Shown: one piece after another, positions 27,526 through 51,573 of the stretch
Layout of the letters: every line of letters begins with the position of its first letter
Numbering within the stretch: the first letter of the stretch is position 1
Origin: Candidatus Omnitrophota bacterium
GTDB taxonomy: Bacteria > Omnitrophota > Omnitrophia > Omnitrophales > Aquincolibacteriaceae
NCBI GenBank assembly: GCA_043821445.1
Contig: JBDRCT010000037.1
Coordinates: 49,703-113,702 of the forward strand
Direction: 5' to 3'
Length of the DNA stretch: 64,000 nt
Position numbers and translations under genes: made by a program
Notes under the pieces: generated by a model
The model's input: only the letters and a program-made list of their open reading frames with translations
What the model was told of the DNA's origin: nothing
Database searches by the model: none

Positions 27526-27531
27526 AAGTTC

Positions 27532-28155: not shown

Positions 28156-28184
28156 AAAATTTTCTCCTGGGTGTGGGGTGCGCG

Positions 28185-29124: not shown

Positions 29125-29653
29125 CCATGGCGAGCATTCTACTCAATTTGTCCCGCGTCCTCCAGCGAAGTTTCTGCTTCGGGCACATCTCAGCTTAGAT
29201 TATTATATTTTCTCATGGCTTAAGAACTCCGCCGGGAAGTGTGTTTCGCCAACGTTTGCCATGCCCCACCGAGGCATGGCTGCACTCGCAAGCGTCGGCC
29301 TCGATGAGAAACCCTGGCTCTCGGCCTCCTTAGCGCGTCTCAACACACTTCCCACCTCCGCGGTTCTCAAGAGAAGGCGAAGGGTTGAGACGAGGCACGC
29401 TGGAAGGACGAGCGGGCAGGGACTTCTCGAAGAGAAGGAGCGAGGACTGGAGGGCGAACAAGGGAATCCACGCCGGGGATTCCCGAGTGGTGACGAGACG
29501 CAAACCTTAAGCCTTCTCTTGCGTAAACGCATGGAATCAAGATCGAGGTGTTGGAAATCCGGGTGGGATTTTTACTGCCCAATTCTTTATCTTCTTTTCC
29601 ATATGGTGAATTGGACTGTCCTGATTACCCGTTATTTTTTAAATGAAAGAGAA

Positions 29654-31318: not shown

Positions 31319-32737
31319 TCAGATCCCGAAATAGATGAACGGCAAATTCGCGCTGCTGCCCGAGCTCAAAAAAAGCCAGAATGTAAGCCAGTAAAAAACC
31401 ACCTTAAAAACAATGTTCGTTTTTAAGAGGACGAATTCTTCTTTTCTGGCCGCCTGCCATACCTGCACCAACACAAGTATGAAGATGTACATGAATAAAA
31501 TGCGGAGATTCGTGATGAAAACGTCGAATTGAAAATCCGAAAAGATCTTTGCCACCTGCGTCACCGCGTGCCTGATACTTATCGGGTAAAAGAACAGCCA
31601 TCCCAGACACACGATGTGGAATGTCGCGAACCATGAAGCGAAGCCGGTCACGGCCCGCACCCATTTCGGGGCTGTGTCCGGTCCGGAAGACGCCCTGTTC
31701 GTTTTGTACCAATGAAAGATCGCTACCGCGATGCCGAAATACACCCCGCGGAAAATACTGCTGAGAGAAATGCTGTGCCATAAGCTAATGCATAAGAGCG
31801 TCACAAAAGAAGCGAGGTAAGCATTGCCTTTGTGATACGCCAGCACGGGGAAAAAAACGTAATCCCTGAACCAATATGTCATGGACATGTGCCACCGCCG
31901 CCAGAAATCCGAGATATTCCTTGCAAAGTAGGGCTGCCGGAAATTGATGGTCAGGTCAAACCCCATCAATTTCGCCGTTCCCCTGGCGATATCCGTGTAA
32001 CCGGAGATGTCGCAGTAGATTTGAAAAGCGAACGCATAAAGAGCCACCAGGACCCCCGCGCCGGAAGACCCGGCGGGATCCGAAAGGAGTTTTTCCGACA
32101 AAACAGCGCAATGGTTCGCGATAAAGATCTTCTGAAAAAGCCCCCAGTAGATCAGATAAACCCCTGTTCTGATATGGCTCCAGGAAATGATCCTTTGATT
32201 CTCGATCTGGTGGTAAAGATGCTTCGCTCTTTCGATGGGGCCGGCGATCAACTGCGGGAAAAAAGAAACATACAACAGATAGTCGGTAAAGTGCCTCACC
32301 GGTTTGACGCCTCCCCGGTAAACGTCGATCAAGTAGCCCATGGTTTGAAAGGTATAAAAAGAGATCCCTAAGGGAAGGATCACCTGAAGATGAAGGGTGT
32401 GCGCGCTCAGCCCGAAGAAAGCAAGGATGGGGTTCAGGCTTGAAATGAAAAAATTGAAAGATTTAAAAAACAGCAGGATGCTGAGATTGATCGACAAGCC
32501 TAATATCAAATACCGTTTTTTGATTCCCGGGCCGTGATTCCGGTCGATCGCCAGGCCGCAAAGGTAATCCGTCGTGCTGGAAATGAAGAGGAGTGAAAGA
32601 AAACGCCAATCCCACCACGCATAAAAGAAATAACTCGCTGCTAGAAGAAAGAGATTCTGTTGACGGTGTTTGAGGAGGACATAGATCAAAAATACGATCA
32701 AAAAGAATACCCAGAACTCGGGGGTGACGAATGACAT
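31319..32737 (-). CDS. MBOAT-family membrane O-acyltransferase (DltB/AlgI-like)
   Basis: Polytopic MBOAT protein with the conserved His region (WRRWHMSMTYWFRDYVF). Starts 1 nt after the ligase stop. Confidence 0.85.
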   Translation of the reverse strand: MSFVTPEFWVFFLIVFLIYVLLKHRQQNLFLLAASYFFYAWWDWRFLSLLFISSTTDYLCGLAIDRNHGPGIKKRYLILGLSINLSILLFFKSFNFFISSLNPILAFFGLSAHTLHLQVILPLGISFYTFQTMGYLIDVYRGGVKPVRHFTDYLLYVSFFPQLIAGPIERAKHLYHQIENQRIISWSHIRTGVYLIYWGLFQKIFIANHCAVLSEKLLSDPAGSSGAGVLVALYAFAFQIYCDISGYTDIARGTAKLMGFDLTINFRQPYFARNISDFWRRWHMSMTYWFRDYVFFPVLAYHKGNAYLASFVTLLCISLWHSISLSSIFRGVYFGIAVAIFHWYKTNRASSGPDTAPKWVRAVTGFASWFATFHIVCLGWLFFYPISIRHAVTQVAKIFSDFQFDVFITNLRILFMYIFILVLVQVWQAARKEEFVLLKTNIVFKVVFYWLTFWLFLSSGSSANLPFIYFGI

Positions 32738-34279
32738 CTATTTGCCCTTTTCCAAATATTGTTTTCTGAGGCTCTCGACCTTGACCTTCCCCGTGGCCCC
32801 CCGCGGAAAATCCTTCGGAAAGAACAGGTCTTGGGGCACCAGGAAAGCCGGGAGCTTTTTCATGGCATGCCGGTAATATTTCTCTTTGGATTTTTTCGGA
32901 CCGCGGACCTTCAAGGCGGTAATGATCGCTTCTCCGTAACGCTCATCCGGAATTCCAAAACTGATCGCCTCTTTGACATCGGGATGCTCTAAGAATGCCT
33001 GGTCGATCTCCAAAGGATAAACATTGATCCCGTTCTTGATAATGATCTGCTTGATCCTGTCCAAAAAGAAAATTTTTCCCTTGGGATCGATAGACCCCGT
33101 GTCCCCCGTTTTGAGAAATCCCCCTCCGGCCATGCAGGATCTTGTCTCTTTCTGATTCCTGAAATACCCCAGCATGTTATAGGGACTTTTCACGCGGAAT
33201 TCTCCGGTCTCGTTAGGCCCTAGCCTTCTTCCTTTCCCGTCAAAAACCCCTATCTCGGCTCCCAAAGCCTTTCCGACACAATGGGCCTTTTCCCCTTTGC
33301 CGGCGCTCTTAGGGACGCTGATCCAACTGGCTGTTTCGGTTAGGCCGTAGCAATTACGGATATAAATGCCCAGATGACCGGCATACCAATCATAAACAGC
33401 TTGCGGCAGTTGAGAGGAAGCCGAAAAAACGGTCCGCAGGCACTTCAAATCCTTTTTCCGGAAACCGCCGGTGTGTTCCTTCAAGAGTGCCAAAATGCCC
33501 GGCACCGCGGTAAAATAACGGATCCGGTATTTTTTCACCATGTTCCAGAATTGGACAGCCAGGAAAGGGTCGAATCTTGCGATATATATTCTGCAGCCGG
33601 ACAAGAACGGGACAAGCATTCCGGGGATCATGCCATGACCGGAAAAAAAAGGCAGGAAACTGAAAAAAGCGGTGCGGGGCCTGAAATTCAAAAGATCGAT
33701 AAGGTTCAAAATTTTCAGCCTTACGGATTCCATGGAAAGCATCACGCCTTTGGGACTTCCGATTGTCCCGGAGGTATACAGGATGAACTTAAGGCCTTTT
33801 TTAGGGATCTGACATTTGCGGACCGGGCGCGATGCTTCGTCCGGTTCCGGGGCAGACCGGAAGATTTCATCCGTAAGCACCGTCCGGCAAGGAAGCTCTT
33901 TGAGCCATGCGTTGCGACCCAAGATCGCTTGGGATGTGATGAGGAATTTTGACCGTGAATGGCGCGCAAGATAGGCCGTCTTTGTTTGATTCAGCCGGGG
34001 GTTCAGGGGAACGAGGACCAGGTCGACGTCCAGGAGGGCCAACAAGACCGCCATGGAATCGATGGAGTTGTCCAAAAAGAGGACTGCCTTATCCCCCGGA
34101 GAGTGCGGGATCGCGCTGAAATAGTGATAGGCCGAATGGACTTTCTTTTTAAAGCCGGCGAGATCGATCGAACTCTTGTCTTGAACGTCCGTGATGAGCT
34201 TCCCGTTTTGGGGAAAGCGATGGGAAAATTCTTCAAAGAACATTTTGGGCGCTACCATAGGCGCGGATGGCCCCGCCAT
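32738..34279 (-). CDS. ANL-superfamily adenylating enzyme (DltA / acyl-CoA ligase-like)
   Basis: YTSGTIGSPKGV (A3 P-loop), GYFRNQKET, TGDTG ... IKNGINVYPLEIDQAF core motifs. Confidence 0.85.
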   Translation of the reverse strand: MAGPSAPMVAPKMFFEEFSHRFPQNGKLITDVQDKSSIDLAGFKKKVHSAYHYFSAIPHSPGDKAVLFLDNSIDSMAVLLALLDVDLVLVPLNPRLNQTKTAYLARHSRSKFLITSQAILGRNAWLKELPCRTVLTDEIFRSAPEPDEASRPVRKCQIPKKGLKFILYTSGTIGSPKGVMLSMESVRLKILNLIDLLNFRPRTAFFSFLPFFSGHGMIPGMLVPFLSGCRIYIARFDPFLAVQFWNMVKKYRIRYFTAVPGILALLKEHTGGFRKKDLKCLRTVFSASSQLPQAVYDWYAGHLGIYIRNCYGLTETASWISVPKSAGKGEKAHCVGKALGAEIGVFDGKGRRLGPNETGEFRVKSPYNMLGYFRNQKETRSCMAGGGFLKTGDTGSIDPKGKIFFLDRIKQIIIKNGINVYPLEIDQAFLEHPDVKEAISFGIPDERYGEAIITALKVRGPKKSKEKYYRHAMKKLPAFLVPQDLFFPKDFPRGATGKVKVESLRKQYLEKGK

Positions 34280-35040
34280 TGCAGCTTCAGAAGAAGCAGG
34301 TCAAAAAACGAGAATACCGCCAATCCCATCATGGAAAAAACGGCAAGGCCCACATACACGTCCAGGATGCGGAACTGGTCCCAGGCATTCCACATGAAGA
34401 AACCTATTCCGTTCTTTGCGGCAAAGAATTCACCGGCCACGACCATCACCAAGCCGTAACCTATCCCTATCTTGCAGCCGTATAAAATATCGGGAAGAAT
34501 GCCTTTCAGGACGATCGAGTAAATTTTTTTAAAGAAAGGGATCCTGTAGATCTGGGCGATATAAGAATAAATTTCCGGAAACCTCCGGATCCCGTGGATC
34601 ACGCTGAGCAGGACAAGATAGAATATCCCGATGGCGATAATGGCTACTTTTGAAGCGTCCCCTATCCCCAGCAGGATCATCAAAAGCGGCAGGACCGACA
34701 ACTTAGGGATCGGATAGGTAATGGAGATAAGCGGATTAAAAAAACGGGCCGCCCTTTGATTCAGGCCCATGATCAATCCGAGTACGACGGCCAAGGGAAC
34801 GGCCAAGACCGTCCCGAGGGCCAATCGCTTCAGGCTGAATGAAAGGTCGCTTAAAAATTTCGGGTCATGCAACAAAAGCCCGGCCAGCCTCCGGAGAATG
34901 GCGACCGGAGCGGGAAAATAGCGGCTATCGATGATTTGGAAATACGCGAGCAATTCCCAAAGCACCAGAAGGACTACCGGCGCATTGAAAAGGGCGCCGG
35001 ATCGTTTGTTTAAAGGACCGAATGTTTGTTTTTTATCCAT
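34252..35040 (-). CDS. ABC transporter permease, NitT/TauT (SsuC-like) family
   Basis: Binding-protein-dependent transport inner-membrane signature (EFFAAKNGIGF). Overlaps both neighbouring genes. Confidence 0.8.
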   Translation of the reverse strand: MDKKQTFGPLNKRSGALFNAPVVLLVLWELLAYFQIIDSRYFPAPVAILRRLAGLLLHDPKFLSDLSFSLKRLALGTVLAVPLAVVLGLIMGLNQRAARFFNPLISITYPIPKLSVLPLLMILLGIGDASKVAIIAIGIFYLVLLSVIHGIRRFPEIYSYIAQIYRIPFFKKIYSIVLKGILPDILYGCKIGIGYGLVMVVAGEFFAAKNGIGFFMWNAWDQFRILDVYVGLAVFSMMGLAVFSFFDLLLLKLQWRGHPRLW

Positions 35041-35840
35041 TGTTGGAACTGCCGCTGGGTTCTTTCGACTTCTACCGTTAATAGTTCCGTGATCTCACGG
35101 ACCAGATCGAGATAACGCCTGTCCTCCCTGATCTGATTAACATCTCTGGGCCGCGGGATATCCACCAAAAACTCCTTCACATTTTTTCCGGGTCTTGAAG
35201 ACATCAGCACGACCCTGTCGGAAAGAGTGACCGCTTCATGGATATTATGCGTGATAAAAAAAACGGTCCTCAATTCGCCTGCCAATATCTCCAAGGTCAG
35301 CTGTTGGAGCTGGATCCTGCTCAGGAAATCCAGATGGACGAAAGGCTCGTCCATCAGGATGACTTTGGAACAAGAGGCCAAGGCGCGTGCAACATTCGCC
35401 CGCTGGATCATGCCTTCCGAAAGGTCGCCCGGAAAATAATCTTTAAAATCCGATAACCTGACCCGCTCCAGATAGCTCGATACTAAACGGTTTTTTTCCG
35501 GGTCCGGCAGAGGGCCATTGAGGCAGATCTTGATGTTGTCGAAAATGTTCAGCCAGGGGAAAAACGCGAAATCCTGAAAGACCACCGACGCGAATAATTC
35601 GGATCCATCGTGCGGCTGGCACTCCAGCTCTCCGGAGAAGTCCTTCGTAAGCCCGGCAAGGATCTTGAGCAGGGTGGTCTTCCCGCACCCGCTGGGGCCG
35701 ATCAAGGAAACGAACTCGCCCTGCCGCAGCGACAGATTGAAATGATCCAGGACCGCCAATTCTCCGAACGCCTTGCAAATGTTGGCGGCTTTTAAAACAA
35801 CGTCCCCGGGCTTGCGTGCGTGATTATTCGAATTTTCCAA
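35010..35840 (-). CDS. ABC transporter ATP-binding protein, NitT/TauT family
   Basis: GPSGCGKTT Walker A, LSEGMIQRANVARAL signature, ILMDEPFVHLD Walker B. Confidence 0.88.
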   Translation of the reverse strand: MENSNNHARKPGDVVLKAANICKAFGELAVLDHFNLSLRQGEFVSLIGPSGCGKTTLLKILAGLTKDFSGELECQPHDGSELFASVVFQDFAFFPWLNIFDNIKICLNGPLPDPEKNRLVSSYLERVRLSDFKDYFPGDLSEGMIQRANVARALASCSKVILMDEPFVHLDFLSRIQLQQLTLEILAGELRTVFFITHNIHEAVTLSDRVVLMSSRPGKNVKEFLVDIPRPRDVNQIREDRRYLDLVREITELLTVEVERTQRQFQQWIKNKHSVL

Positions 35841-36846
35841 GACGGGCCAACGCTTTTTCTACGAAGGTGTGGTCCACGGCTTTTTCGATGTCGCAGGGCA
35901 CATCAAGGTATCCATGCTCCCGGTACCATTGTGTATCTTCAGCCAGGGACTCTTTATTGAGGTAGCCGTCCGGATTGATCCCTGCGGGGATCATGTTACT
36001 CCAAATGTCATTCGCTTCGATCTTAACATGTTTCTTGAGCAGAAAAATGGCTTCCTCTTTATTTTTGCCTTTGATAAATGCGTCGTAATAGTCCCGGACC
36101 CCTTTCAGATAGGCGATCATGAATTTTTCCGCCAGATCAGGCCGTCCGGTGATGAATGGGAAGGAATACAGGATGGCCGCGCTCTGCTGTCCGGGATAGA
36201 CTTCATTGACCCCCGCAACCTTGACCGCGATGCCTTTTGACTCGGCCTCGGTAAGATACGGCTCAAGCTGGATGGTCGCATCGAGGGCCTTGTTCCCCAA
36301 AGCAACGTTCATGGCCGCATAATCCATCTTTTCAAAAACTACATCGTTCACGCTCAATCCCGCGGTCTTCAAGAATTTATCGGCCGCGATTTGCTGGGAA
36401 ACTCCGAACGCGGTCACCGCCATCTTAAAGCCTTTCAGATCGCCGAATCTCTGGTATCGCTTGCTGTCGACATGGTCTTTCCTGACCAGCAATCCTATGT
36501 AATCACATGCTTTGCTGACGCTCCCTTTATCGGCCACCAGTTTTATGTTGAGCCCGCTGTTGATGGCATTCCATAACCCCGCGCTGATATTCCCCGCGCC
36601 GACGTCCAGACTGCCGTTCCCCAGTAAGGCTGTCATGGGCGCTCCTGAGCCCTTAAAATAGGTCAAGTCGGCTTCGATCCCCTCTTTCTTAAAATATCCC
36701 TTTTCGTAAGCAAGAAAAATGCCCGAGGAACTGACCACGGGAGAAACCCCGATCTTGACCTTAGAATCTTTGCCGTCACTGGCGCTCGCTACCGACACAG
36801 AGAGGCCTATGCAAGCGACCATCCCTACGATCCATGTTTTTCTCAT
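35824..36846 (-). CDS. ABC transporter periplasmic substrate-binding protein (NMT1/SsuA-like) with signal peptide
   Basis: Signal peptide MRKTWIVGMVACIGLSVSVASA; NitT/TauT SBP-like fold. Confidence 0.75.
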   Translation of the reverse strand: MRKTWIVGMVACIGLSVSVASASDGKDSKVKIGVSPVVSSSGIFLAYEKGYFKKEGIEADLTYFKGSGAPMTALLGNGSLDVGAGNISAGLWNAINSGLNIKLVADKGSVSKACDYIGLLVRKDHVDSKRYQRFGDLKGFKMAVTAFGVSQQIAADKFLKTAGLSVNDVVFEKMDYAAMNVALGNKALDATIQLEPYLTEAESKGIAVKVAGVNEVYPGQQSAAILYSFPFITGRPDLAEKFMIAYLKGVRDYYDAFIKGKNKEEAIFLLKKHVKIEANDIWSNMIPAGINPDGYLNKESLAEDTQWYREHGYLDVPCDIEKAVDHTFVEKALARLGKFE

Positions 36847-37112
36847 TTTCGCTCTCCTTCTTTTTGTTTGTTGGATATAAAGGCCGTTAAATTTTCGATC
36901 GTTTCCAGGTTTCCGGGGTGAATATCGCCCTTCTTGATCTTGATATGAAACCGGGCCTCGAGCGCGTGGACAAAAGGAAAGATGCCGAAAGAATCGACGA
37001 TCCCCCGTAAAAAAAGCGACTCACCGGCGGAAAAATCCCTTGGCACTTTAATGCCGTGATTATTCTTTGCCAGGATGTCCCTGACCGCGTTCTCGATTTC
37101 TTCGCGTTGCAT
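36843..37112 (-). CDS. Small carrier protein, DltC/ACP-like (89 aa)
   Basis: GIVDSFGIFPFVHALE resembles the DltC phosphopantetheine attachment site (GIIDSFQTV). Size and helix pattern fit a carrier protein. Confidence 0.6.
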   Translation of the reverse strand: MQREEIENAVRDILAKNNHGIKVPRDFSAGESLFLRGIVDSFGIFPFVHALEARFHIKIKKGDIHPGNLETIENLTAFISNKQKEGERK

Positions 37113-37160
37113 TGGTTCTATTCTATAAGCCCTTATGGATATCGAGCAATCCTTTTTGTA

Positions 37161-38918
37161 TCAATTTTCCGTTAATTGGCGGAAGATCTCCTGGGCTATA
37201 ATTTTGTGCCCATATCGGTTAGGATGAGAATGAGCTTCCGCGAGGAGAAAATTTTTATTTTTGTTAAATATACCTTCCAGGTTCAAATAGTAGATTTCCG
37301 GATGTTCCCGGCGCAAATTCGCCAGAAAAATTTCTGTTCGCTCATCATTCAAGCCCGTTGAAAAGTCAAGCTGCGGGATGAAAACCACCTTGATCCCCTT
37401 TTCTTTACATAAGGTTATCACTTCTTTAAAAAGAAAGTCCGGGTTCTCAATGGACGTCGCTCGGTCGCCGGAGTGCCATGCACCCAGGAACCTTTTTCTG
37501 ATGTTTTCCACAGCCATGAATAAATAACTTTTACATAAAAAGTCGTACAGGTACACGATCTCTTTGATCGGCTCCTTGAATTTAAGGGCGGCATACAAGA
37601 GCCGGCCGTTCTTGATCCAGTCGGAATTCTTTTCCATCACCCTCTTGGCTCTCTGGTATAAAGCATAATCCTTCTCAAGCCGTCCTTTGTTATTCTCCTC
37701 TTTCGGATAGGCTAGCCTTCCATAAAATAATATGAAGTCAGGGTTCATTTTGTTCAATACTTCTTTCAAATATATGTTCATCTCTACGCTGTAAAAGTTA
37801 TTCATCCCGGGAAGGACTAGGGGAATGACCATGTTTTTCTTTTGATTCCACGCATTCAATTTCTTTTCCAAAAGGGCCGGGAAAACTTGGGCCAGGGAAA
37901 GAGCTCCGATCTCAAGGGGGGAAGATCCCGCGCAGAGGATCCGCGTGGCGTGTTCGGAATTCGCTATCAGGTATTTGTTCGGCCGGTCACCAAAGTAAGA
38001 CTTGATCGTGAGCTCCTTCGGATCGTTGAAGGCCCCAAAAAAATTAGTGGATATCTCGAATCGCCATTTGGGTTTCAGTTGACCGATGTCCAGACCCGGA
38101 TCATGGGGGTAAGCCACTCTTAGAAATGCTTCCAGGAAAAACAGGGGGAAGACAAAAAAGAGTAACTTTCTGAAGAAGCGCTTTTCAGAACATCCCAGGG
38201 CAAGAAAGATCAGCACTCCGAGGGAAAGGAACATTTGCGAGATGAATTTGTAAAAATAGAGCAGGGCAAAATCAGCGTTGAATAAAATTCTCCCCGCAGG
38301 ACCCAAAATTTCCAGCCTGTTAAGCGTCACTTCTTTTTGCGACGGGAGGAACAAGCCGAAGTTATAATTTACGGGCTCAGGACCCAGCGGGATCTTTTCC
38401 ATGAATTTTCCGTTCATATAAACAAGGACCGTTTTTTCTGTCAGATTGCATTTCAAACGCGATTGGAAACCTTCCGATCGATTAAACCCTGGTATCATGC
38501 ACAAAGGTGAGAGTGGATATTTTATCGTTGAGACATATTCTTCCTGACCCTGCCCATCCTTACAATAAACCCCCGAGGGGCTGCTATATCCGGATAGAAT
38601 GAAGCTGCATCGATCACAAAATCGTATTTCGACCCTTCGGCAGGCCAACCGTGTCAGGTTGACTTCGATGTCGTACCGGGTCGGGTCACGGGGTTGACCC
38701 GCGTCCGTCGCCTTAGGATGTTCATATCCCCATACCTCATTGAGTTCATAGAGCGACCGCCACTTTTTTCCCAGGGCTGGGATTTCTTTTTCGCAGAATA
38801 GGATCGAAGAAGCTGCGACGATCATAAGGACGAGCGAATAGATTGCGGTGCGTGATTTGTTTTTATGTAATGCTTCTGTAAGGGATGCGACTGAAGATCT
38901 TTTCATAATGTTGATCAA
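37161..38918 (-). CDS. Membrane protein, paralogue A: TM + Cys-rich ecto-domain + 2 TM + DltD/AlgJ-like SGNH domain
   Basis: TM at aa ~22-42 and 2 TM at aa ~220-270. C-terminal ILCAGSSP (SGNH block I-like) and HSHPNRYGHKIIAQEI (block V-like). 585 aa. Confidence 0.7.
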   Translation of the reverse strand: MINIMKRSSVASLTEALHKNKSRTAIYSLVLMIVAASSILFCEKEIPALGKKWRSLYELNEVWGYEHPKATDAGQPRDPTRYDIEVNLTRLACRRVEIRFCDRCSFILSGYSSPSGVYCKDGQGQEEYVSTIKYPLSPLCMIPGFNRSEGFQSRLKCNLTEKTVLVYMNGKFMEKIPLGPEPVNYNFGLFLPSQKEVTLNRLEILGPAGRILFNADFALLYFYKFISQMFLSLGVLIFLALGCSEKRFFRKLLFFVFPLFFLEAFLRVAYPHDPGLDIGQLKPKWRFEISTNFFGAFNDPKELTIKSYFGDRPNKYLIANSEHATRILCAGSSPLEIGALSLAQVFPALLEKKLNAWNQKKNMVIPLVLPGMNNFYSVEMNIYLKEVLNKMNPDFILFYGRLAYPKEENNKGRLEKDYALYQRAKRVMEKNSDWIKNGRLLYAALKFKEPIKEIVYLYDFLCKSYLFMAVENIRKRFLGAWHSGDRATSIENPDFLFKEVITLCKEKGIKVVFIPQLDFSTGLNDERTEIFLANLRREHPEIYYLNLEGIFNKNKNFLLAEAHSHPNRYGHKIIAQEIFRQLTEN

Positions 38919-39023
38919 GCGGTATCAGGCCCCTGGTCCAACAGGTTCATTATAAAAAACGTCCGTTCGAGAACGTCAGTGAACTTACCGATCATTTGTG
39001 GATATCGAGCGATCCTTTTTCTG

Positions 39024-40784
39024 TCAATTTTCCGTTAATTGGCGGAAGATCTCCTGGGCCATCACCTCATTTCCATAGTTATTAGCATGAGCCCTATCTC
39101 TCGCGATGAGAAAATTTTCATACCGTTTAAATATACCTTCCAGGCTTAGATAATAGATCTCCGGATATTTTTGGCGGAAATTCACCAAAAAATTTTCTGT
39201 GAGCTTGTGATTCGAACGCGTTAAAAAGTTAAGCTGCGGAATGAAAACCACCTTGATCCCCTTTTCTTTACATAAGGTTATCAAGGCTTCAAAAAGAAAG
39301 TTCGGGTTCTCAATGGACGTCACTCGATCGCCGGAGTGCCATGCACCCAGGAACCTTTTTCTGATGTTTTCCACGGCCATGAATAAATAACTTTTACATA
39401 GAAAGTCGTATAGATACACGATCTCTTTGACCGGCTCCTTGAATTCAAGGGCGGCATATAAGAGCCGGTCGTTCTTGATCCAGCCGGAATTCTTTTCCAT
39501 CACCCTCTTGGCTCTCTGGTATAAAGCATAATCCTCCTCGAACTGTGCTTTATCATACTCCTCATAAAAGGGGCTCAGCGTGCCATAAAATAACATGAGG
39601 TCAGGATTGATTTTTTTCAATACTTCTCTCAAATAGACATTCATTTCTACATTCCTAAAGTTATCGCTCCAGGGAATGATGATGGGGATCACGATGTTTT
39701 TCTTTTGATTCCACGCATTCAATTTCTTTTCCAAAAGGGCCGGGAAATCTTGGTCAAACAAAGGGGGTCCGGCCATAAGAGGGGAAGAGCCTGCGCAGAG
39801 GATCCGCGTGGTGTGTTCGGGACTCGCTATCAGGTATTTGTTCGGCCGGTCACCAAAGTAAGACCTGATCGTAAGCTCCTTCGGATCGTTGAAGGCCCCA
39901 AAGAAATTAGTGGATATTTCGAATCGCCATTTGGGTTTCAGCCGATCGATATCCAGACCCGGGTCATGGGGGTAAGTCACTCTTAGAAATATTTCTATGA
40001 ATACCAGGGGAAAAACAAAAAGCAGGACCTTTCTGAAAAAGCGTCTCTCAGAACATGCCAGGGCAAGAAAGATCAGGACGCCGAGGGAAAGGAACACTTG
40101 CGAGATAAATTTATAAAAATAGAGCAGGGGAAAGTTGACATGGAATAAAACTCTTCCTTTTGGGTCGGAAATTTTTAGCTTATCAAGTATCACTTCTTCT
40201 CCTGCCGGGGGGATAGCCAAACCGAAACTATCATGGAGGGACTCAGGACCTAGCGGGATCTTTTCCGCGAATTTTCCGTTCACGTAAACAAGAACCGTTT
40301 TTTCTATCAGATCGCATTTCAAACGCAATTGGAAACCTTCCGATCGTTTAAACCCTGGTATCACGCACAAAGGTGAGAGCGGATACTTTATCGTTGAGAC
40401 ATATCCTTCCCGGCCCTGTTCATCCTTACAATAAACTCCCGAGGAGCTGCTATATTTGGACAGAATGAAGCTGCATCGATCACAAAATCGTATTTCGGCC
40501 CTACGGCAAGCAGACCGTGTCAGGCTGACTTCGATGTCGTACCGGGTCAAGTTACGAAGCTGACCTTCTTCCATCGCCTTAGGGTCCTCATATCCCCACA
40601 CTTCGTTTAATGCATAGAGTGATCGCCACTTTTTCCCCTGGGCTGCTATCTCTTTTTCACAGAATAGGATCGAAGAAGCTGCGACGATCATAAGGACGAG
40701 CGAAAATACGGCGATGGGTAATCTGCTTTTGCTTAATATTTCCGTGAGGGATGCGACTGAAAATCTTTTCATAACGTTGATCAA
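39024..40784 (-). CDS. Membrane protein, paralogue B of the tandem SGNH-like array
   Basis: Same architecture as A. The C-terminal ~100 aa and the spacer are nearly identical to the other copies. Confidence 0.7.
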   Translation of the reverse strand: MINVMKRFSVASLTEILSKSRLPIAVFSLVLMIVAASSILFCEKEIAAQGKKWRSLYALNEVWGYEDPKAMEEGQLRNLTRYDIEVSLTRSACRRAEIRFCDRCSFILSKYSSSSGVYCKDEQGREGYVSTIKYPLSPLCVIPGFKRSEGFQLRLKCDLIEKTVLVYVNGKFAEKIPLGPESLHDSFGLAIPPAGEEVILDKLKISDPKGRVLFHVNFPLLYFYKFISQVFLSLGVLIFLALACSERRFFRKVLLFVFPLVFIEIFLRVTYPHDPGLDIDRLKPKWRFEISTNFFGAFNDPKELTIRSYFGDRPNKYLIASPEHTTRILCAGSSPLMAGPPLFDQDFPALLEKKLNAWNQKKNIVIPIIIPWSDNFRNVEMNVYLREVLKKINPDLMLFYGTLSPFYEEYDKAQFEEDYALYQRAKRVMEKNSGWIKNDRLLYAALEFKEPVKEIVYLYDFLCKSYLFMAVENIRKRFLGAWHSGDRVTSIENPNFLFEALITLCKEKGIKVVFIPQLNFLTRSNHKLTENFLVNFRQKYPEIYYLSLEGIFKRYENFLIARDRAHANNYGNEVMAQEIFRQLTEN

Positions 40785-40889
40785 GCGGTATCAGGCCCCT
40801 GGGCTAACAGGTTTATTATAAAAAACGTCCGTTCGAGAACGTCAGTGAACTTACCGATCATTTGTGGATATCGAGCGATCCTTTTTCTG

Positions 40890-42647
40890 TCAATTTTCCG
40901 TTAATTGGCGGAAGATCTCCTGGGCTATCACTTCATGCCCATAATTGTTAGTATGAGAGTTATCTATCGCGATGAGAAAATTTTCATACCGTTCAAATAT
41001 ACCTTCCAGGCTTAGATAATAGATCTCCGGATATTTTTGGCGGAAATTCACCAAAAAATTTTCTGTGAGCTTGTGATTCGAACGCGTTAAAAAGTCGAGC
41101 TGCGGGATGAAAACCACCTTGATCCCCTTTTCTTTACATAAGGTTATCAATGCTTCAAAAAGAAAGTCCGGGTTCTCAATGGACGTCGCTCGGTCGCCGG
41201 AGTGCCATGCGCCCAGGAACCTTTTTCTGATGTTTTCCACGGCCATGAATAAATAACTTTTACATAAAAAGTCGTATAGATACACGATCTCTTTGACCGG
41301 CTCCTTGAATTCAAGGGCGGCATACAAGAGCCGGTCGTTCTTGATCCAGCCGGAATTCTTTTCCATCACCCTCTTGGCTCTCTGGTATAAAGCATAATCC
41401 TCCTCGAACTGTGCCTTGCTGCGCTCGTCTCTAAAGGGAACCAGCATGCCATAGAATAATATGAGATCAGGATTCATTTTGTTTAATACTTCTTTCAAAT
41501 ATATGTTCATCCCTAAGCTGTAAAAACTAGCCATCCCGGGAAGGACTAGGGGAATGACCATGTTTTTCTTTTGATTCCAGGCATTCAATTTCCTTTCCAA
41601 AAGGGCCGGGAAAGCTTGGGCCAGGGAAAGGGCTCCGCCTTCCAGGGGGGAAGCTCCTGCGCAGACGATCCGCATAGCGTGGTCGGGGTTCGCTACCCGG
41701 TATGTGCGCAATTCGCCAGAGCCAGACTCGAGCGTGAGCTCCTTCGGATCGTTGAAGGCCCCAAAAAAATTAGTGGATATCTCGAATCGCCATTTGGGTT
41801 TCAGTTGACCGATGTCCAGACCCGGATCATGCGGGTAAGCCACTCTTAAAAATGCTTCCAGGAAAAACAGGGGGAAGACAAAAAAGAGTAACTTTCTGAA
41901 AAAGCGCTTTTCAGAACATGCCAGGGCAAGAAAGATCAGCACTCCGAGGGAAAGAAACCCTTGCGAGATAAGCCTGAAAAAAATGAGCGGGACGAAATTA
42001 ATGCTGGATAAAACCTTCCCCTTTGGGTCGGAAATTTCCAGCCTGTTAAGTATCACTTCTTTTCCCACCGGGTGGATCACTAAACCAAAACTATCATGGA
42101 CGGGCTCAGGACCCAGCGGGATCTTTTCCATGAATTTTCCGTTCATGTAAACAAGGACTGTTTTTTCTACCAAATCGCACTTCAAAAGCAGCTTGACGCC
42201 TCCTAACCGTTCATGCCACGCCATCACGCGCGTCGATGGGTACGGATACTCTGCCGTCGAGACATATGTTTCCCGGCCTTGTTCATCCTTATAATAAACT
42301 CCTGAGAGTTTGCTATCTCCGGACAGAACAAAACTGTATTTATCGCAAAATCGTATGGCGATCCTATGGTAGGCAAACCGTGTCAGGCTGACTTTGATGT
42401 CATACCGGGTCAAGTTACGAAGCTGTCCCTCTTCCATCGCCTTAGGGTCCTCATATCCCCACACCTCTTTCAGCTCATAGAGCGATCGCCACTTTTTTTC
42501 CAAGACTGGGATCTTTTGATCGCAGAATAGGATCGAAGAAGCTGCAATGATCATAAAGAGCAATGAAAATACGGCGATGAGTAGTCTGCTCTTGCTTAAT
42601 ATTTCCGTGAGGGATGCGACTGAAGATCTTTTCATAATGTTGATCAA
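40890..42647 (-). CDS. Membrane protein, paralogue C of the tandem SGNH-like array
   Basis: Same architecture; most divergent ecto-domain (Cys pattern partly lost). Confidence 0.7.
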   Translation of the reverse strand: MINIMKRSSVASLTEILSKSRLLIAVFSLLFMIIAASSILFCDQKIPVLEKKWRSLYELKEVWGYEDPKAMEEGQLRNLTRYDIKVSLTRFAYHRIAIRFCDKYSFVLSGDSKLSGVYYKDEQGRETYVSTAEYPYPSTRVMAWHERLGGVKLLLKCDLVEKTVLVYMNGKFMEKIPLGPEPVHDSFGLVIHPVGKEVILNRLEISDPKGKVLSSINFVPLIFFRLISQGFLSLGVLIFLALACSEKRFFRKLLFFVFPLFFLEAFLRVAYPHDPGLDIGQLKPKWRFEISTNFFGAFNDPKELTLESGSGELRTYRVANPDHAMRIVCAGASPLEGGALSLAQAFPALLERKLNAWNQKKNMVIPLVLPGMASFYSLGMNIYLKEVLNKMNPDLILFYGMLVPFRDERSKAQFEEDYALYQRAKRVMEKNSGWIKNDRLLYAALEFKEPVKEIVYLYDFLCKSYLFMAVENIRKRFLGAWHSGDRATSIENPDFLFEALITLCKEKGIKVVFIPQLDFLTRSNHKLTENFLVNFRQKYPEIYYLSLEGIFERYENFLIAIDNSHTNNYGHEVIAQEIFRQLTEN

Positions 42648-42752
42648 GCGGTATCAGGCCCCTGGGCTAACAGGTTTATTATAAAAAACGTCTGTTCAAG
42701 AATGTCGGTGAACTTATCGATTACTTATTGATATCGAGCAATCCTTTTTGTA

Positions 42753-44499
42753 TCAATTTTCCGTTAATTGGCGGAAAATCTCTTCAGCTATGACCTCGTG
42801 CCCATAGCTGCTCAGGTGAAACCGGTCTTTCATGATGGTAAAATGTTCATTCCTTTCAAATATGCTTTCCAGGCTTAAATAATAAGTCTCCGGATGTTTC
42901 CGGCGCAAATTCGCCAACGGATCCCCCGTTTGCCTGTCATTCGAGCGCGTTAAAAAGTCGAGCTGCGGAATGAAAACCACCTTGATCCCCTTTTCTTTAC
43001 ATAAGGTTATCAAGGCTTCAAAAAGAAAGTCCGGGTTCTCAATGGACGTCGCTCGGTCGCCGGAGTACCATGCGCCCAGGAACCTTTTCCTGATGTTTTC
43101 CACGGCCATGAATAAATAACTTTTACATAGAAAGTCGTATAGATACACGATCTCTTTGACCGGCTCCTTGAATTCAAGAGCGGCATAGAGTAACCGGTCG
43201 TTCTTGATCCAGCCGGAGTTCTTTTCCATCACCTTCTTTGCTCTCTGGTACAGGACATAATCCTTCTCGAACTGTGCTTCGTCATACCCCTTACTAGCAG
43301 ACAGTAACTTGCCATAAAATAATATGAGGTCAGGATTCATTTTATTTAATACTTCTTTCAAATAAATATTCATTTCTACATTGTTAAGGCGTTCAAACCA
43401 GGGAACGATTATGGGGATCACTACATTTTTCTTTTCACTTCGTGCATTTAATTTCCTTTCCAAAATGGCCGGAAAAGCTTGATCGGGGAAAGGGGCTCCC
43501 GCAAAAAGAGGGGAAGAGCCTGCGCAGAGAATCCGCATCGCGTGCTCGGGGTTCGCTACCTGGTAGGTGCGTGGAGGGCACCCGTAAGAATGAATCGTGA
43601 GTTCCCTCGGATCGTTGAAGGCCCCAAAGAAATTAGTGGATGTCTCGAATCGCCATTTGGGTTTCAGTTGACCGATGTCCAGACCCGGGTCATGGGGGTA
43701 AGTCACTCTTAGAAATATTTCTATGAATACCAGGGGGAAAGCAAAAAGTAGCACCTTTCTGAAGAGGCGCTTTTCAGAACATCCCAGGGCAAAAAGGATC
43801 AGCACTCCCAGGGAAAGAAACACTTGCGAGATGAGTTTAAAAAAAAAGGAGCGGAAAAAAATTAACGCTGTATAACACTCTCCCCTTTGGGCCGGAAATT
43901 TCCAGTTTGTCAAGCATTGCTTCTCTCCTCCACGGAGGGATGGCCAAGCCAAAGTTATTATTGACGGGCTCGGGACCCAGGAGGATCTTTTCCATGAATT
44001 CCCCGTTCATGTAAACGAGGACCGTTTTTGCCACTAGATCACATTTAAAAAGAAAATGGTAGTTTTTGGGTTGTTGATGCCCTGTCATCGCGCGCATAGG
44101 TGCGCACGGATACTCTACCTTCGAAACATATTCTTCCCGACCCTGCCCATCCTTATAATAAACTCCCGAGGGTTTGTTATTTTCCGTCATAATAAAGCTG
44201 TATTTATCACAAAACAGTATTTCCACCCTGCGTTGGTCACTCCGTGTCAGACTGACTTTGATGTCATACCGGGTTGGGTCACGGGCCGGACCCGCGTCCG
44301 TCGCCTTAGGGTCCTCATATCCCCACACCTCATTTAACTGACAGAGCGATCGCCACTTTTTTTCCAGCTTTCTTATCTCTCCTTCGCAAAATAGGATTGA
44401 AGAAGCTGCGACGATCATAAGGACGAGCGAAAATACGGCGATAGGTGATCTGTTTTTGCGTAATATTTCCGTGAGGGATGCAGCTGAGAATTTTTTCAT
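42753..44499 (-). pseudogene. Paralogue D of the array, split by a +1 frameshift near A9/A7 homopolymer tracts (ORFs 43837-44742 and 42753-43952)
   Basis: The N-terminal and C-terminal halves lie in different frames. Alignment with copy A shows one extra base in gcggaaaaaaattaac (43850-43865). The true start is MKKFSAASLTE at 44499. Confidence 0.65.
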
Positions 44500-44582
44500 G
44501 ATGTCAATGAAGCGGCAACAGGCGATGGACCCCATTGATTGATTATAAAAATGCTCGTTCGAGAGAGAAGGATCGGAGGCTT

Positions 44583-45716
44583 TTAGACCGCGGGCAAGGT
44601 GAAAAAGAAAGTCGAGCCAACCCCGGATTTGCCCGCCGTACTGTCTTGAACGTCTACCGCTGAGCCGGACGGATCCGTTGTGCGGTGGGTCGAAGATTCT
44701 ACCCAAATGCGCCCGCCGCAACGCTCCACGATCTTCTGGCACGTCGCCAAACCGATCCCCGACCCCGGATATTTTTGCCGCGTCGCCAATTTTTCAAACA
44801 TGAGAAAAATGCGTTCCCGGAGCGCTTCGGGGACCCCGATCCCGTTGTCTTGGACAGAAAAAAGCCATTCTTTTTCTTTGCGGACGGCCGAAATATGGAC
44901 GCGCGGTTCTTTTTCGCAGTATTTGATCGCGTTGCCGATCAGGTTTTGAAAAAGCAATCCCGCGAGGCCCGGATCGATCGGTAAGGCCGGTAAGGGATCG
45001 CAGATCACTTCCGCTTTTTTTTGGAGTATCAAAAAATGGAAGTCCTTGATCACTTCCTTGACGACCTTTTCCAATTCCAAGGGGGACTGCGGGGCCTTGG
45101 ATTTTTGAACATTGGCGTAATTCAAAAGCGCTTTGATAAAAAGGATCATCCGGTTCACGGTGGTGATAATACGTTCCATGAAATCTTTCGCCGTCTCATC
45201 TCCTGAATCCTGATACTTGTCTTTCAAGAGCTCCGCAAAACCCAAAATAGTCGCCAAAGGGGATTGAAGATCGTGGGCCGCCTTCGATGCGAACAATTCG
45301 AGCTCGAGATTGGAACGGGCTAGTTCGTCCGATTTTATTTTAAGCTGTTCTTCCTTGCTCCGGATGATGCCGGTCATCATGCAGACGACTGTAAATGTTA
45401 GGACACGCACGAGGCCATTCACGAGCAAAAAAGGCGAATCCTTTTGGGCGATAGACCACAGGATCGATGACAGAACCACCATAAGCCAACCCGGCCGGTC
45501 CCCCCAATACCAAGTCACGGCCATGATGGAAGGGATATAAAAAATATAAAAGGCGACTTCGTCGCCGGTCATTACATCCAGATTAAAAATAAGAAGCGTG
45601 GCGCAAAGGATAAGGAGGCCCTCAAGCATTTCCAGGGCCTTGCTTTTTTTAGGCGGTCTCTTTTGAGAAGTGATCTTCATCAAGGAATAGTATAAACTTG
45701 CATCCCGAACTGTCAA
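44583..45716 (-). CDS. Intramembrane-sensing histidine kinase (multi-TM N-terminus + HisKA + HATPase_c)
   Basis: AHDLQSPLATILGFAELL H-box; GSGIGLATCQKIVERCGGRIWVES. No cognate receiver gene adjacent. Confidence 0.85.
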   Translation of the reverse strand: MTVRDASLYYSLMKITSQKRPPKKSKALEMLEGLLILCATLLIFNLDVMTGDEVAFYIFYIPSIMAVTWYWGDRPGWLMVVLSSILWSIAQKDSPFLLVNGLVRVLTFTVVCMMTGIIRSKEEQLKIKSDELARSNLELELFASKAAHDLQSPLATILGFAELLKDKYQDSGDETAKDFMERIITTVNRMILFIKALLNYANVQKSKAPQSPLELEKVVKEVIKDFHFLILQKKAEVICDPLPALPIDPGLAGLLFQNLIGNAIKYCEKEPRVHISAVRKEKEWLFSVQDNGIGVPEALRERIFLMFEKLATRQKYPGSGIGLATCQKIVERCGGRIWVESSTHRTTDPSGSAVDVQDSTAGKSGVGSTFFFTLPAV

Positions 45717-45814
45717 CGCGCATCCTGCTTTAAACGGCTATTTTTTATTATTGGGATGCGTCATCACTTGGATTACGGCTTTCCCCCAGCTTTGATCTCT
45801 TGCTATAATCTTCC

Positions 45815-46753
45815 ATGACTTTGATCAGCGTCATCATCCCCACCTACAACCGCAAAACGGTCCTGCCCCGCGCGATCGGCTCCGTCCTCGCGCAATCCGC
45901 CACAAAGCGCTGGACGGATCCGTCCTTTGGCGGAAAAGGCGCAGACCTTGAACTTATCGTTGTCGATGACGGTTCCACAGACAATACGTGCGCAACGGTC
46001 AACGCTCAACGTTCAACGAAAGATAATTCCCGCGAAAACGGCGATCTGAACGGACCAGAAACACGCTGTGCGTTGCACGTCGTGCGTTGCGCGGAAAATA
46101 AAGGCCCCGCCGCCGCCCGGAACCTCGGGATCCGGGAAGCGAAGGGCGAGTGGATCGCGTTCCTGGATTCGGATGATGAATGGAAACCCGGCAAGCTTAG
46201 GGCCCAGCTGGAATTCTTCGGGAAAAATCCGGACCACCTCATTTGCCAGACCGAGGAGATCTGGGTGCGCAACGGCACGCGCGTCAACCCGATGAAGAAG
46301 CACAAAAAATCCGGCGGATGGATCTTTGAAAAATGTCTGCCGCTTTGCATCGTAAGCCCTTCAGCTGTGATGATGCACCGGAGCCTCTTCGATGAGGTCG
46401 GGTTTTTCGACGAATCGCTTCCAGCTTGCGAGGACTATGACCTCTGGCTTCGGATCGCCGCAAAATATCCCATCGGCTTAATCGAAAAACCTTATCTTAT
46501 CAAATACGGCGGCCATGCGGACCAGCGCTCCCGTGAATTCCCGGCCATGGACCTCTTCAGGATCCAATCGCTCGTTAAGATCCTTTCTCAAAATATCCTC
46601 ACCCCCGAACAAACTTGCGCCGCGCGGCGAATGTTGGAAGAAAAATCGAGGATCTTCATCGCAGGGGCGCTCAAACGCGGAAGAGAGGAAGAAGCGGAAG
46701 AAATCCAAAAGCTCGCGCAAAGCGCAACGGTCAACGCTCAACGGCTAAGCTAG
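45815..46753 (+). CDS. Family-2 glycosyltransferase carrying MITE-derived sequence
   Basis: VIIPTYNR ... LIVVDDGSTDNT ... AARNLGIREAKGEWIAFLDSDDEW (GT2 DXD region). Contains a 35-aa in-frame insert and a MITE-encoded C-terminus. Confidence 0.85.
   Translation: MTLISVIIPTYNRKTVLPRAIGSVLAQSATKRWTDPSFGGKGADLELIVVDDGSTDNTCATVNAQRSTKDNSRENGDLNGPETRCALHVVRCAENKGPAAARNLGIREAKGEWIAFLDSDDEWKPGKLRAQLEFFGKNPDHLICQTEEIWVRNGTRVNPMKKHKKSGGWIFEKCLPLCIVSPSAVMMHRSLFDEVGFFDESLPACEDYDLWLRIAAKYPIGLIEKPYLIKYGGHADQRSREFPAMDLFRIQSLVKILSQNILTPEQTCAARRMLEEKSRIFIAGALKRGREEEAEEIQKLAQSATVNAQRLS
45989..46093. repeat. MITE-like element, family 3 (TIR GCGCAACGGTCAACGCTCAACG), 105 bp, in-frame inside the GT2 CDS
   Basis: tgcgcaacggtcaacgctcaacgttcaacg ... 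cgctgtgcgttgcacgtcgtgcgttgcgcgg. Length 105 = 35 codons with no stop. Sits between the DGSTD and NKG..AARN blocks. Confidence 0.7.
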
Positions 46754-46790
46754 GTTTTTATGTTGTCCGTTGCGCGTTGAACGTTGCGCT
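46721..46790. repeat. MITE-like element, family 3, minimal ~70-bp hairpin copy spanning the stop codons of two convergent genes
   Basis: agcgcaacggtcaacgctcaacgg-ctaagctaggtttttatgttgt-ccgttgcgcgttgaacgttgcgct. The GT2 TAG (46751) and the permease stop (46789-46791) both fall inside the element. Confidence 0.75.
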
Positions 46791-47838: not shown

Positions 47839-47901
47839 TTGATTTTAAGGGTTAACAGTATTGCCCAAGTCTTTATTTCTTTTTATGAATGGAGACTTGG
47901 A

Positions 47902-48204
47902 CTAGAGACTCCCCTGCTCCATATCGCGTTCCATTTCCGCCGATGCCGCGGCATCCGCCTTGGCGGCATATTGAGCCGGATCGCTTAGAAAAGTCTTTTC
48001 GCACATGGGGCAACAAAGACCGTAGCGCTTGCCTTCATAAACCACGAAATTTTGCCCGCTCACCGGTCCGCCCATCACCGGGCACATCTTATTGCCCACA
48101 TCCACGATCCCTGTTTGTGCCGTATCTTCCGTCGCAAAAACCTGCGGCAGCGCGAACGGCATCAGAAACAGCACGAGCATCGCAACGACCAATAGTTTTT
48201 TCAT
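47902..48204 (-). CDS. Secreted YHS/TRASH-type metal-binding domain protein
   Basis: Signal peptide, then CPVMGGPV ... YEGKRYGLCCPMCEKTF (YHS-like Cys pattern). Sits next to the cus genes. Confidence 0.65.
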   Translation of the reverse strand: MKKLLVVAMLVLFLMPFALPQVFATEDTAQTGIVDVGNKMCPVMGGPVSGQNFVVYEGKRYGLCCPMCEKTFLSDPAQYAAKADAAASAEMERDMEQGSL

Positions 48205-48223
48205 GTTGATCCTCCTTAAGTGA

Positions 48224-51547: not shown

Positions 51548-51573
51548 AGTCCACCGTCCTCAGTCGACCAGTA

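Follow-up and report, generated by a model that had tools for sequence, protein, structure and literature searches.

Four tandem, mosaic copies of a putative SGNH-fold enzyme gene at the head of a predicted envelope-acylation module in a Candidatus Omnitrophota genome

Why should a bacterium carry four full-length copies of one gene side by side, each a different patchwork of the others, and what might the four proteins do? The question is raised by a window (the whole stretch of DNA analysed, 64,000 nucleotides) from a metagenome-assembled genome (MAG) of a Candidatus Omnitrophota bacterium. The four copies, designated A to D, are direct repeats arranged head-to-tail on the minus strand. The reading favoured here, which draws on analogy with described systems and is judged to be fairly probable, is that the first gene of a seven-gene module for envelope acylation has been amplified four-fold in tandem, specifically in this lineage. 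The paralogues would be alternative, acceptor-specific terminal transferases, served by one donor line and patched by gene conversion.

The copies and the homopolymer that interrupts copy D are as follows.

37161..38906, minus strand: copy A, last in the array; an intact open reading frame (ORF) of 581 amino acids (aa)
39024..40772, minus strand: copy B; an intact 582-aa ORF
40890..42635, minus strand: copy C; an intact 581-aa ORF in which block I reads GASP, with the nucleophile Ser kept
42753..44499, minus strand: copy D, first in the array, at the ancestral 5' position beside a histidine kinase gene; full-length, with one +1 frameshift
43839..43847, minus strand: homopolymer with the 1-nt insertion that splits copy D (T9 on the coding strand, A9 on the plus strand)

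The copies start 1863, 1866 and 1863 bp apart; these values had been reported as repeat periods in a first-pass annotation, made from the sequence only, and they hold as start-to-start spacings. The limits given there, 37113-44499, run from the base after the carrier gene start to the ATG of copy D. Whole units are 79-85% identical in pairwise comparison, and 574 of 1847 aligned sites (31%) are polymorphic. As read, copy D yields two ORFs; with one T removed it becomes an intact 581-aa ORF with no other stop. Copies A to C are ABH891_07825/30/35 and were matched to P0001 (A, 100% identity), P0002 (B) and P0003 (C) of a collection of 5.8 billion proteins, in which each array protein occurs on one contig only. 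A fifth copy was looked for within the window and none was found. Tandem Repeats Finder reported no repeat on the array, because its longest period is 500.

The copies are joined by three spacers, and the array is preceded by its native upstream region.

38907..39023, minus strand: B-A spacer; the first ~28 nt past the stop are native 3' flank, and the other ~89 nt are the native upstream region of single-copy orthologues, with TTTTTTATAAT
40773..40889, minus strand: C-B spacer; 96.6% identical to the B-A spacer
42636..42752, minus strand: D-C spacer; 87-89% identical to the B-A and C-B spacers
44500..44582, minus strand: native upstream region of the array, from the histidine kinase stop to the ATG of copy D; homologous to the upstream region of single-copy orthologues

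The conservation of the spacers noted in the first-pass annotation is thereby confirmed. All four copies are full-length, and each has about 89 nt of native upstream sequence. The first copy also retains native far-upstream sequence, and the last copy retains native downstream sequence. An element TTTTT(T)ATAAT is kept about 45 nt upstream of the ATG in all four copies (approximately 38950-38960, 40816-40826, 42679-42689 and 44540-44550), with the counterparts TTTTTTATAAC in the related loci L003 and L006 and TTTCTTATAAC in L001 and L009. Every copy may therefore have its own -10-like element; a consensus promoter scan did not call it. Counts of promoters and terminators were those expected from shuffled sequence, and a terminator is not claimed. 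The spacers fold no better than shuffled sequence, and a structured RNA is likewise not claimed. A search of the array and spacers against Rfam gave sub-threshold noise only, and an inverted-repeat search gave only short, imperfect, chance-like pairs.

The mosaic character of the array was analysed on the four-copy alignment. The quartet-informative sites (n = 137) support the grouping AD/BC (A with D, B with C) at 50 sites, AB/CD at 45 and AC/BD at 42. These patterns are clustered: neighbouring informative sites have equal patterns in 91 cases, versus 44.8 ± 5.4 in permutations (p ≤ 1e-4). The pairwise homoplasy index (PHI) test for recombination gave p ≤ 5e-4, and segmentation by the Bayesian information criterion (BIC) gave 4 segments, versus a mean of 1.02 in permutations.

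Upstream region to codon 75, segment 1: AD/BC dominant
Codons 78-246, segment 2: AB/CD dominant
Codons 249-386, segment 3: AC/BD dominant
Codon 400 to the 3' spacer, segment 4: AD/BC dominant

Divergence is thus not uniform along the gene, and at least three breakpoints are present. Sliding pairwise identity places A and B nearest at alignment columns 351-550 (85-92%), A and C at columns 801-950 (97-99%), and B and C at columns 1601-1850 (89-99%). The identity of the closest pair ranges from 66% to 99% between segments. A GENECONV-like permutation test found significant tracts for A-B, A-C, B-C and B-D, and none for A-D or C-D. The main tracts are listed below, with the one block that is alike in all copies.

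38010..38220, minus strand: recent A-C conversion tract, 211 nt, 98.1% identical; partner in copy C at 41736-41946
39101..39223, minus strand: recent B-C conversion tract, 123 nt, 99.2% identical; partner in copy C at 40967-41089
38448..38513, minus strand: core of the A-B conversion tract, in the beta-domain; partner in copy B at 40314-40379
37413..37662 (A), 39276-39525 (B), 41142-41391 (C) and 43005-43254 (D), minus strand: homogenised block, part of the SGNH helical insert

The clustered topologies, the PHI test and the significant tracts bear out the recombination among paralogues proposed earlier, and all the peptide motifs quoted in that annotation were found in the copies named. The layout proposed with them, a homogenised 3' half and a diversifying 5' half, has to be given up, since the mosaic runs across the whole unit. 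The homogenised block (alignment columns 1351-1600, codons ~413-512) is the sole one in which all pairs are at least 92% identical; it has been repeatedly homogenised, and constraint on the protein is strongest there. In codons 319-412 divergence is on a level with that in the N-terminal domain (nonsynonymous divergence, dN, 0.14-0.25; synonymous divergence, dS, 0.40-0.83), and the same is true of the last ~70 codons. The last ~100 codons had been described as almost identical between copies; over the last ~300 nt, identity is 92-99% for the pair B-C alone, and the other pairs have 68-86%. At residues 413-500 the paralogues are 90-97% identical to one another versus 75-86% to their orthologues, and dS is lowered to 0.07-0.31. 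This pattern indicates concerted evolution on top of a strong constraint on the protein. At residues 83-215 and 501-581, the paralogues are no nearer to each other than to the orthologues.

The mosaic as such reflects gene conversion of a kind that is usual in tandem families. Diverged strings of tandem paralogues with recombination-driven mosaic genes are described for the type VII secretion system immunity genes esaG/tsaI (PMC9484751) and for a tandem paralogue cluster of S. aureus (PMC2568036). The likeness lies in recombination between diverged tandem copies that yields mosaic genes. The differences are that the array encodes a putative envelope acyl-transfer enzyme rather than immunity proteins or lipoproteins, and that its inter-copy divergence is much older. 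What is less ordinary here is the unannotated architecture of the protein, the hybrid MBOAT-SGNH module, importer-fed and carrier-dependent, to which it belongs, and the repeated amplification of its gene.

The proteins themselves are not recognised by the usual family models. None of the four copies matched a Pfam family at E ≤ 0.01 or an NCBIfam family at E ≤ 1, the Lipase_GDSL, Lipase_GDSL_2 and SGNH models included. There was also no PADLOC match, and no PDB match in a single-sequence search. The family is rare, with 16 proteins in the 5.8-billion collection. An exhaustive profile search identified about 24 cluster representatives at E < 1e-30 and about 2400 weaker matches, which are confined to the C-terminal 330 residues; those sampled are Pfam Lipase_GDSL_2 proteins. 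Alignment of the family profile with twelve Pfam GDSL_2 relatives by hhalign gave a probability of 100% and E = 7e-44 over residues 250-581. Against solved SGNH esterases, RIICvGSSP of the family profile aligns with RIVVLGDSL (block I), and eDrSHPseYGH with EDGIHPNARG (block V). The C-terminal domain is therefore assigned, from homology detectable by profile methods only, to the SGNH fold, with a Ser-His(-Asp) centre.

Structure prediction agrees with this assignment. The full-length model was of moderate confidence (predicted local distance difference test, pLDDT, 61.8) and showed a transmembrane (TM) helix, an all-beta domain (77-212), a TM hairpin and an alpha/beta domain. The C-terminal domain was then remodelled with a deeper, 54-sequence alignment. 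This model was confident (pLDDT 87.9; predicted template modelling score, pTM, 0.86), and in it the alpha/beta/alpha fold typical of SGNH enzymes is predicted. Foldseek searches with the beta-domain returned galectins, LNS domains and BoNT/NTNH lectin-like domains at E ~1e-4, and a beta-sandwich of the concanavalin A (ConA)/galectin type is predicted. The predicted layout and the catalytic codons are given for copy A.

37161..38906, minus strand: copy A protein, with TM1 at about residues 20-38, beta-domain at about 76-212, TM hairpin at about 221-266 and SGNH domain at about 298-581
37920-37922, minus strand: codon of Ser329, copy A
37224-37226, minus strand: codon of His561, copy A

Block I has the form G-S/A-S329-P, and Ser329 is invariant in the 16 family members and in the 54-sequence alignment. 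In the latter, His561 is also invariant and Asp558 is at least 90% conserved. Block V is strongly conserved in the orthologues as D-x-S-H-P-x-E-Y-G-H (consensus SHPxEYGH) and is altered in all copies: AHSHPNRYGH in A (37224-37250; without the Asp), DRAHANNYGN in B, DNSHTNNYGH in C and DRFHLSSYGH in D. These changes reflect either changed specificity or relaxed constraint near the catalytic His. Three hydrophobic segments are present, and Lys and Arg are enriched in the N-terminal tail (5) and in the TM2-TM3 loop (4). From hydropathy and the positive-inside rule, both soluble domains are predicted to lie outside the cytoplasm. The earlier suggestion of an acyl-transfer enzyme with an ecto-domain is thus broadly right; what can be added is an operon with an MBOAT, a carrier and a ligase, and an N-terminal domain that models as ConA/galectin-like.

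The genes that follow the array on the minus strand complete the module.

36843..37112, minus strand: carrier protein, 89 aa; resembles acyl carrier protein (ACP) and DltC only below curated cut-offs; its VDSFG serine motif is kept in the orthologues
34252..36846, minus strand: ATP-binding cassette (ABC) importer, with an SsuA/NMT1-family binding protein at 35824-36846, an ATPase at 35010-35840 and a permease at 34252-35040
32738..34279, minus strand: AMP-forming, FadD-like ligase; the best NCBIfam matches are long-chain fatty-acid-CoA ligase families (NF004837, 1.6e-80)
31319..32737, minus strand: DltB/AlgI-like MBOAT; PF03062 at 2e-19; ends in FIYFGI (codons at 31322-31339)

The best NCBIfam match of the MBOAT is DltB (1e-45). 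Its sequence ends in LPFIYFGI, and PFIYFG(I/F) directly before the stop is conserved: the ending is the same in L001, L003 and L010, and reads FIYFGF in L005. FIYFGI resembles the FxYxxF acyl-shuttle hexapeptide, with Ile instead of Phe as the last residue in most members. Past the MBOAT gene lies an unrelated gene, glgA. The seven genes, in the order repeat gene, carrier, binding protein, ATPase, permease, ligase and MBOAT, are present in every relative whose contig spans the module, and the order is kept in L005 despite otherwise unrelated flanks. The MBOAT gene co-occurs with the SGNH gene in L001, L002, L003, L005 and L010. By analogy, we infer that the module is a carrier-dependent MBOAT-SGNH system for envelope acylation, with a carrier/ligase donor arm and a shuttle motif fused to the MBOAT.

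Which of the known systems does this module resemble? MBOAT-SGNH pairs are a general bacterial route for acylating envelope polymers. Such systems route the acyl group via the Tyr of the FxYxxF hexapeptide, which lies at the MBOAT C-terminus in PatA-like systems fed by acyl-CoA, and on the microprotein DltX in the carrier-fed Dlt system (PMC12148441). As in PatA/PatB, AlgI/AlgJ/AlgX and WssH/WssI (PMC12148441), an MBOAT and a predicted extracytoplasmic SGNH-fold protein are encoded together. The PatA/PatB type is further matched by the FxYxxF-like hexapeptide at the MBOAT end (here FIYFGI; FIYFGF in L005), and by an SGNH Ser/His(/Asp) centre with a non-canonical oxyanion hole, as described for SGNH transferases (PMC12148441). 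However, the PatA/PatB type uses acyl-CoA and has no carrier or ligase, whereas here a carrier and a FadD-like ligase are encoded together with an ABC importer. Moreover, the SGNH protein here has three predicted TM helices, an N-terminal lectin-like domain, no Pfam match and four tandem copies.

The Dlt system (DltA-DltC-DltB-DltX-DltD), which carries out D-alanylation of teichoic acids, would share the order of steps: ligase, carrier, MBOAT and an external, membrane-anchored SGNH-fold protein. The differences are nevertheless numerous. The ligase is FadD-like, and DltA is not among the best 25 NCBIfam matches listed. The carrier scores 19 bits against a DltC cut-off of 68, and the MBOAT scores 156 bits against a DltB cut-off of 375. 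There is no DltX microprotein, the shuttle motif being fused to the MBOAT. Dlt has no counterpart of the ABC importer or of the lectin-like domain, and the host belongs to the Omnitrophota and is not a Firmicute. The SGNH protein gave no match to the DltD family. The candidate identity of this protein as DltD-like was dropped on account of the ligase, the sub-cut-off carrier and MBOAT, the missing DltX and the missing DltD match, and the system is filed under MBOAT-SGNH, not Dlt. The module therefore mixes both known types, with a carrier and ligase yet a shuttle motif fused to the MBOAT; a dedicated ABC importer, and a terminal enzyme with a lectin-like domain, come in addition. Literature searches turned up neither an account of this array nor one of a carrier-dependent MBOAT-SGNH system other than Dlt.

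A sequence of steps can be proposed by analogy with PatAB and Dlt. A small acid would be taken up by the SsuA-type ABC importer and loaded on the 89-aa carrier protein by the FadD-like ligase. The MBOAT would then pass it across the membrane to the Tyr of its own C-terminal FIYFGI. From there, Ser329 of the SGNH domain would take the acyl group and pass it on to a glycopolymer outside the cytoplasm that the beta-domain holds in place. Different acceptors or positions would be served by the four paralogues, with one donor line shared among them. We speculate that the homogenised block (codons ~413-512) is the surface that fits the single MBOAT. AlgX, an alginate O-acetyltransferase, offers a conceptual parallel: it combines an SGNH-like transferase domain with a carbohydrate-binding beta-sandwich, by which the polymer acceptor would be held. 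AlgX differs in its reversed domain order, in being a soluble periplasmic protein and in being encoded by a single-copy gene.

Several points weigh against this proposal. The Asp of the triad, Asp558, is present in B, C and D, and copy A has Ala558. The block III Asn (GxND) is absent from the family, which has FYGxL (YGxL) where remote relatives have LYxGxND. Because all four copies depart from the orthologue consensus near the catalytic His, some of them may be impaired rather than re-specialised. The fold of the beta-domain is called from a model of moderate confidence and Foldseek matches at E ~1e-4. The identities given to the acyl group and the acceptor are putative, as is the choice of transfer over hydrolysis. 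All sequences come from MAG assemblies. In addition, a ratio dN/dS (omega) above that of neighbouring genes also fits relaxed constraint.

Is the amplification peculiar to this genome? One copy is present in L001/L002, L003, L004, L005, L009, L012 and L013, and L006 and L011 have one copy each on contigs that end near the gene. A second tandem array was found in GCA_041643255.1 (L007, L008), with at least 3 copies that are 67-69% identical in protein. The duplication junctions differ. The spacers in the window join ~28 nt of native 3' flank to native upstream sequence from -89 to -1, with TTTTTTATAAT, whereas the spacer of the second array runs into the carrier gene start (AATGCAGCGGGAAG) and retains only ~25 nt of upstream sequence. 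Thus, the two arrays arose independently. In both, the first copy, beside the kinase gene, is frameshifted by a homopolymer 1-nt indel: T9 here and G8 in L008 (~2135-2145). Possible causes are assembly error, slipped-strand phase variation and recent pseudogenisation.

A third form of amplification occurs in L010, a syntenic MAG. Here a single 1123-aa ORF (9200-12571) encodes three in-frame N-terminal modules, each made of TM1, a beta-domain and a TM hairpin, ahead of one SGNH domain. Where modules 2 and 3 meet, TM3 appears to merge with TM1, which would preserve the topology; where modules 1 and 2 meet, three hydrophobic segments would invert the second module. A multiplied terminal enzyme, once only its N-terminal module, is a recurrent outcome in the clade. 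The three independent amplifications, one of them of the N-terminal module only, fit selection for multiplicity of that module. That three related lineages have amplified the same gene suggests a real selective value of having several terminal transferases in this phylum, for which there is no genetic system and there are very few cultures.

Further relatives widen the picture. In L014 (1-7729), a radical-SAM gene and a methyltransferase gene lie between two simpler SGNH paralogues (329 aa and 355 aa) that lack the beta-domain; the paralogues adjoin the same module of carrier, binding protein and ABC genes, which is read divergently. This layout suggests that importer-fed acylation loci with several terminal enzymes form a wider family. 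More distant relatives of the SGNH domain (818-aa proteins in L016/L017), and the module in L005, have as neighbours PMT_2/ArnT-like glycosyltransferases, carbamoyltransferases, B12-radical-SAM enzymes, a polysaccharide deacetylase and a sulfatase. These settings fit a role in surface-glycan modification. Scans of species genomes and Joint Genome Institute (JGI) metagenomes added only 5 loci, and no second strain of the source organism was found in them.

The strength of selection on the copies was estimated by the method of Nei and Gojobori (NG86). Over the whole gene, the paralogue pairs have dN of 0.135-0.188, dS of 0.33-0.49 and omega of 0.34-0.46. Omega in the beta-domain is 0.39-0.58, and in no domain does it exceed 1 for all pairs. 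The flanking single-copy genes, compared with L003/L001, have dS of 0.31-0.56 and omega of 0.08-0.24; the repeat gene compared with its orthologues has dS of 0.49-0.70 and omega of 0.32-0.47, and the single-copy orthologues among themselves have omega of 0.25-0.34. The copies are therefore under purifying selection that is weaker than that on their neighbours, and the repeat gene is intrinsically the fastest-evolving gene of its operon. In the loop at residues 124-150, the ratio of nonsynonymous to synonymous differences per site (pN/pS) is 0.85-1.66 in non-converted paralogue pairs (sliding peak at residues 121-150), 0.58-0.90 in the second array and 0.22-0.38 in single-copy orthologues. An excess of pN over pS in this loop was never significant (p ≥ 0.2), a test of low power with four recombining sequences, and the contrast between loop and rest of gene was only nominally significant, in pairs with D. 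Positive selection on the loop was accordingly dropped as a candidate, and the diversifying selection that had been proposed for the ecto-domain is not demonstrated by these values.

The same values bear on age. Because the paralogue dS is similar to the species-level dS of the flanking genes, the duplication dates from roughly the time of the split from L003/L001, the nearest sequenced relatives. Most of the inter-copy divergence is old, and only a few tracts are recent. The duplication was followed by patchy conversion between copies, which has left each of the three topologies dominant somewhere.

The main rival to the favoured reading, considered somewhat unlikely, is that an amplification once increased the dosage of the terminal enzyme, and that the copies are redundant or dosage duplicates that drift under relaxed constraint and now partly decay, the mosaic being a passive by-product of conversion with no functional diversification. 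Their omega of 0.34-0.46 against 0.08-0.24 in the operon neighbours, the frameshift in copy D, the loss of the triad Asp in copy A, the degenerate surroundings of the catalytic His in all four copies and the lack of any significant excess of pN over pS are all in line with it. However, three copies have stayed open over 581 codons at dS of 0.33-0.49, D is one base from intact, and omega is well below 1. The single-copy orthologues are also fast (omega 0.25-0.34), so that fast evolution belongs to the gene and not only to its duplicates. Independent amplification in three lineages, once of the N-terminal module alone, is also difficult to reconcile with mere drift. A different objection concerns the reaction. 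Hydrolases and transferases are inseparable by fold alone, and the SGNH proteins might be Ape1-like esterases that remove acyl groups, with an array that diversifies de-acylation or nutrient-scavenging specificity. This is quite unlikely: the repeat gene is the sole SGNH gene of the module, and an MBOAT with a shuttle peptide would be left without a transferase partner. The strictly conserved order with carrier, ligase and MBOAT, and an oxyanion hole that is non-canonical in the manner described for transferases (PMC12148441), also favour transfer.

An analogy with antigenic-variation loci and immunity cassettes had been drawn in the first-pass annotation. In such a contingency locus, frequent inter-copy recombination and homopolymer slippage in the first copy would switch or reshuffle, among the cells of a population, the specificity of surface modification. 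The recent conversion tracts at 98-99% identity, the homopolymer-frameshifted first copy in both arrays (T9; G8 in L008) and the pN/pS of ~1 in loop 124-150 of the paralogues, versus ~0.3 in single-copy orthologues, would agree with this. Nevertheless, the idea is improbable, and the analogy is not supported. All copies are complete with native upstream sequence, and there are no silent partial cassettes, no meaningful inverted repeats, no invertible element and no PADLOC match. No recombinase gene was found among the neighbours examined (kinase, GT2 glycosyltransferase, transporters). Most of the divergence is as old as the species split, each protein occurs on one contig only, and no error of assembly or sequencing is commoner than a homopolymer indel. 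The most far-reaching variant is a contingency locus of an undescribed class of carrier-dependent, importer-fed MBOAT-SGNH surface acylation, with a lectin-guided terminal transferase, in which ongoing conversion and homopolymer slippage in the promoter-proximal copy would reshuffle the acylated glycans. This variant is unlikely; if true, the envelope of very small, possibly host-dependent Omnitrophota would undergo antigenic variation by enzymatic modification, and not by variation of a surface protein. Finally, the array might be a collapsed, expanded or chimeric repeat, with topology switches as mis-joins at shared k-mers. In favour of this, the sequence derives from a MAG, an assembler could switch copies within blocks of 92-99% identity (up to ~250 nt long), and copy D has its homopolymer frameshift. 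An artefact is very improbable: the units differ at 31% of sites and each sequence is unique, native flanks are kept beyond both the first and the last copy, and independent arrays occur in other assemblies. The depth of the closest pair also varies from 66% to 99% by segment, which permuted segments of a tree-like family would not give.

If the favoured reading of alternative terminal transferases holds, the array would be a natural experiment on which part of an SGNH enzyme sets the choice of acceptor (the variable beta-domain and the surroundings of block V) and which part is kept compatible with the MBOAT (the homogenised helical block).

The wider neighbourhood was also compared. The flanks at 22372-31201 and 44583-54169 are syntenic with L001, L003 and L010, and the array is the only copy-number difference seen against this backbone. 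One flank contains a family 2 glycosyltransferase (GT2), the histidine kinase, an ArsP-type permease, a YHS-domain protein and a resistance-nodulation-division (RND) efflux pump. The other contains glgA, a K+ channel, a CMD-family protein, a scramblase-like protein and a response regulator with GGDEF and EAL domains. Within the array, antisense ORFs of 92-93 aa on the plus strand are common to copies A, B and C (37842-38123, 39705-39986 and 41571-41849). They face codons ~262-355 of these copies and are probably a by-product of sense-strand conservation.

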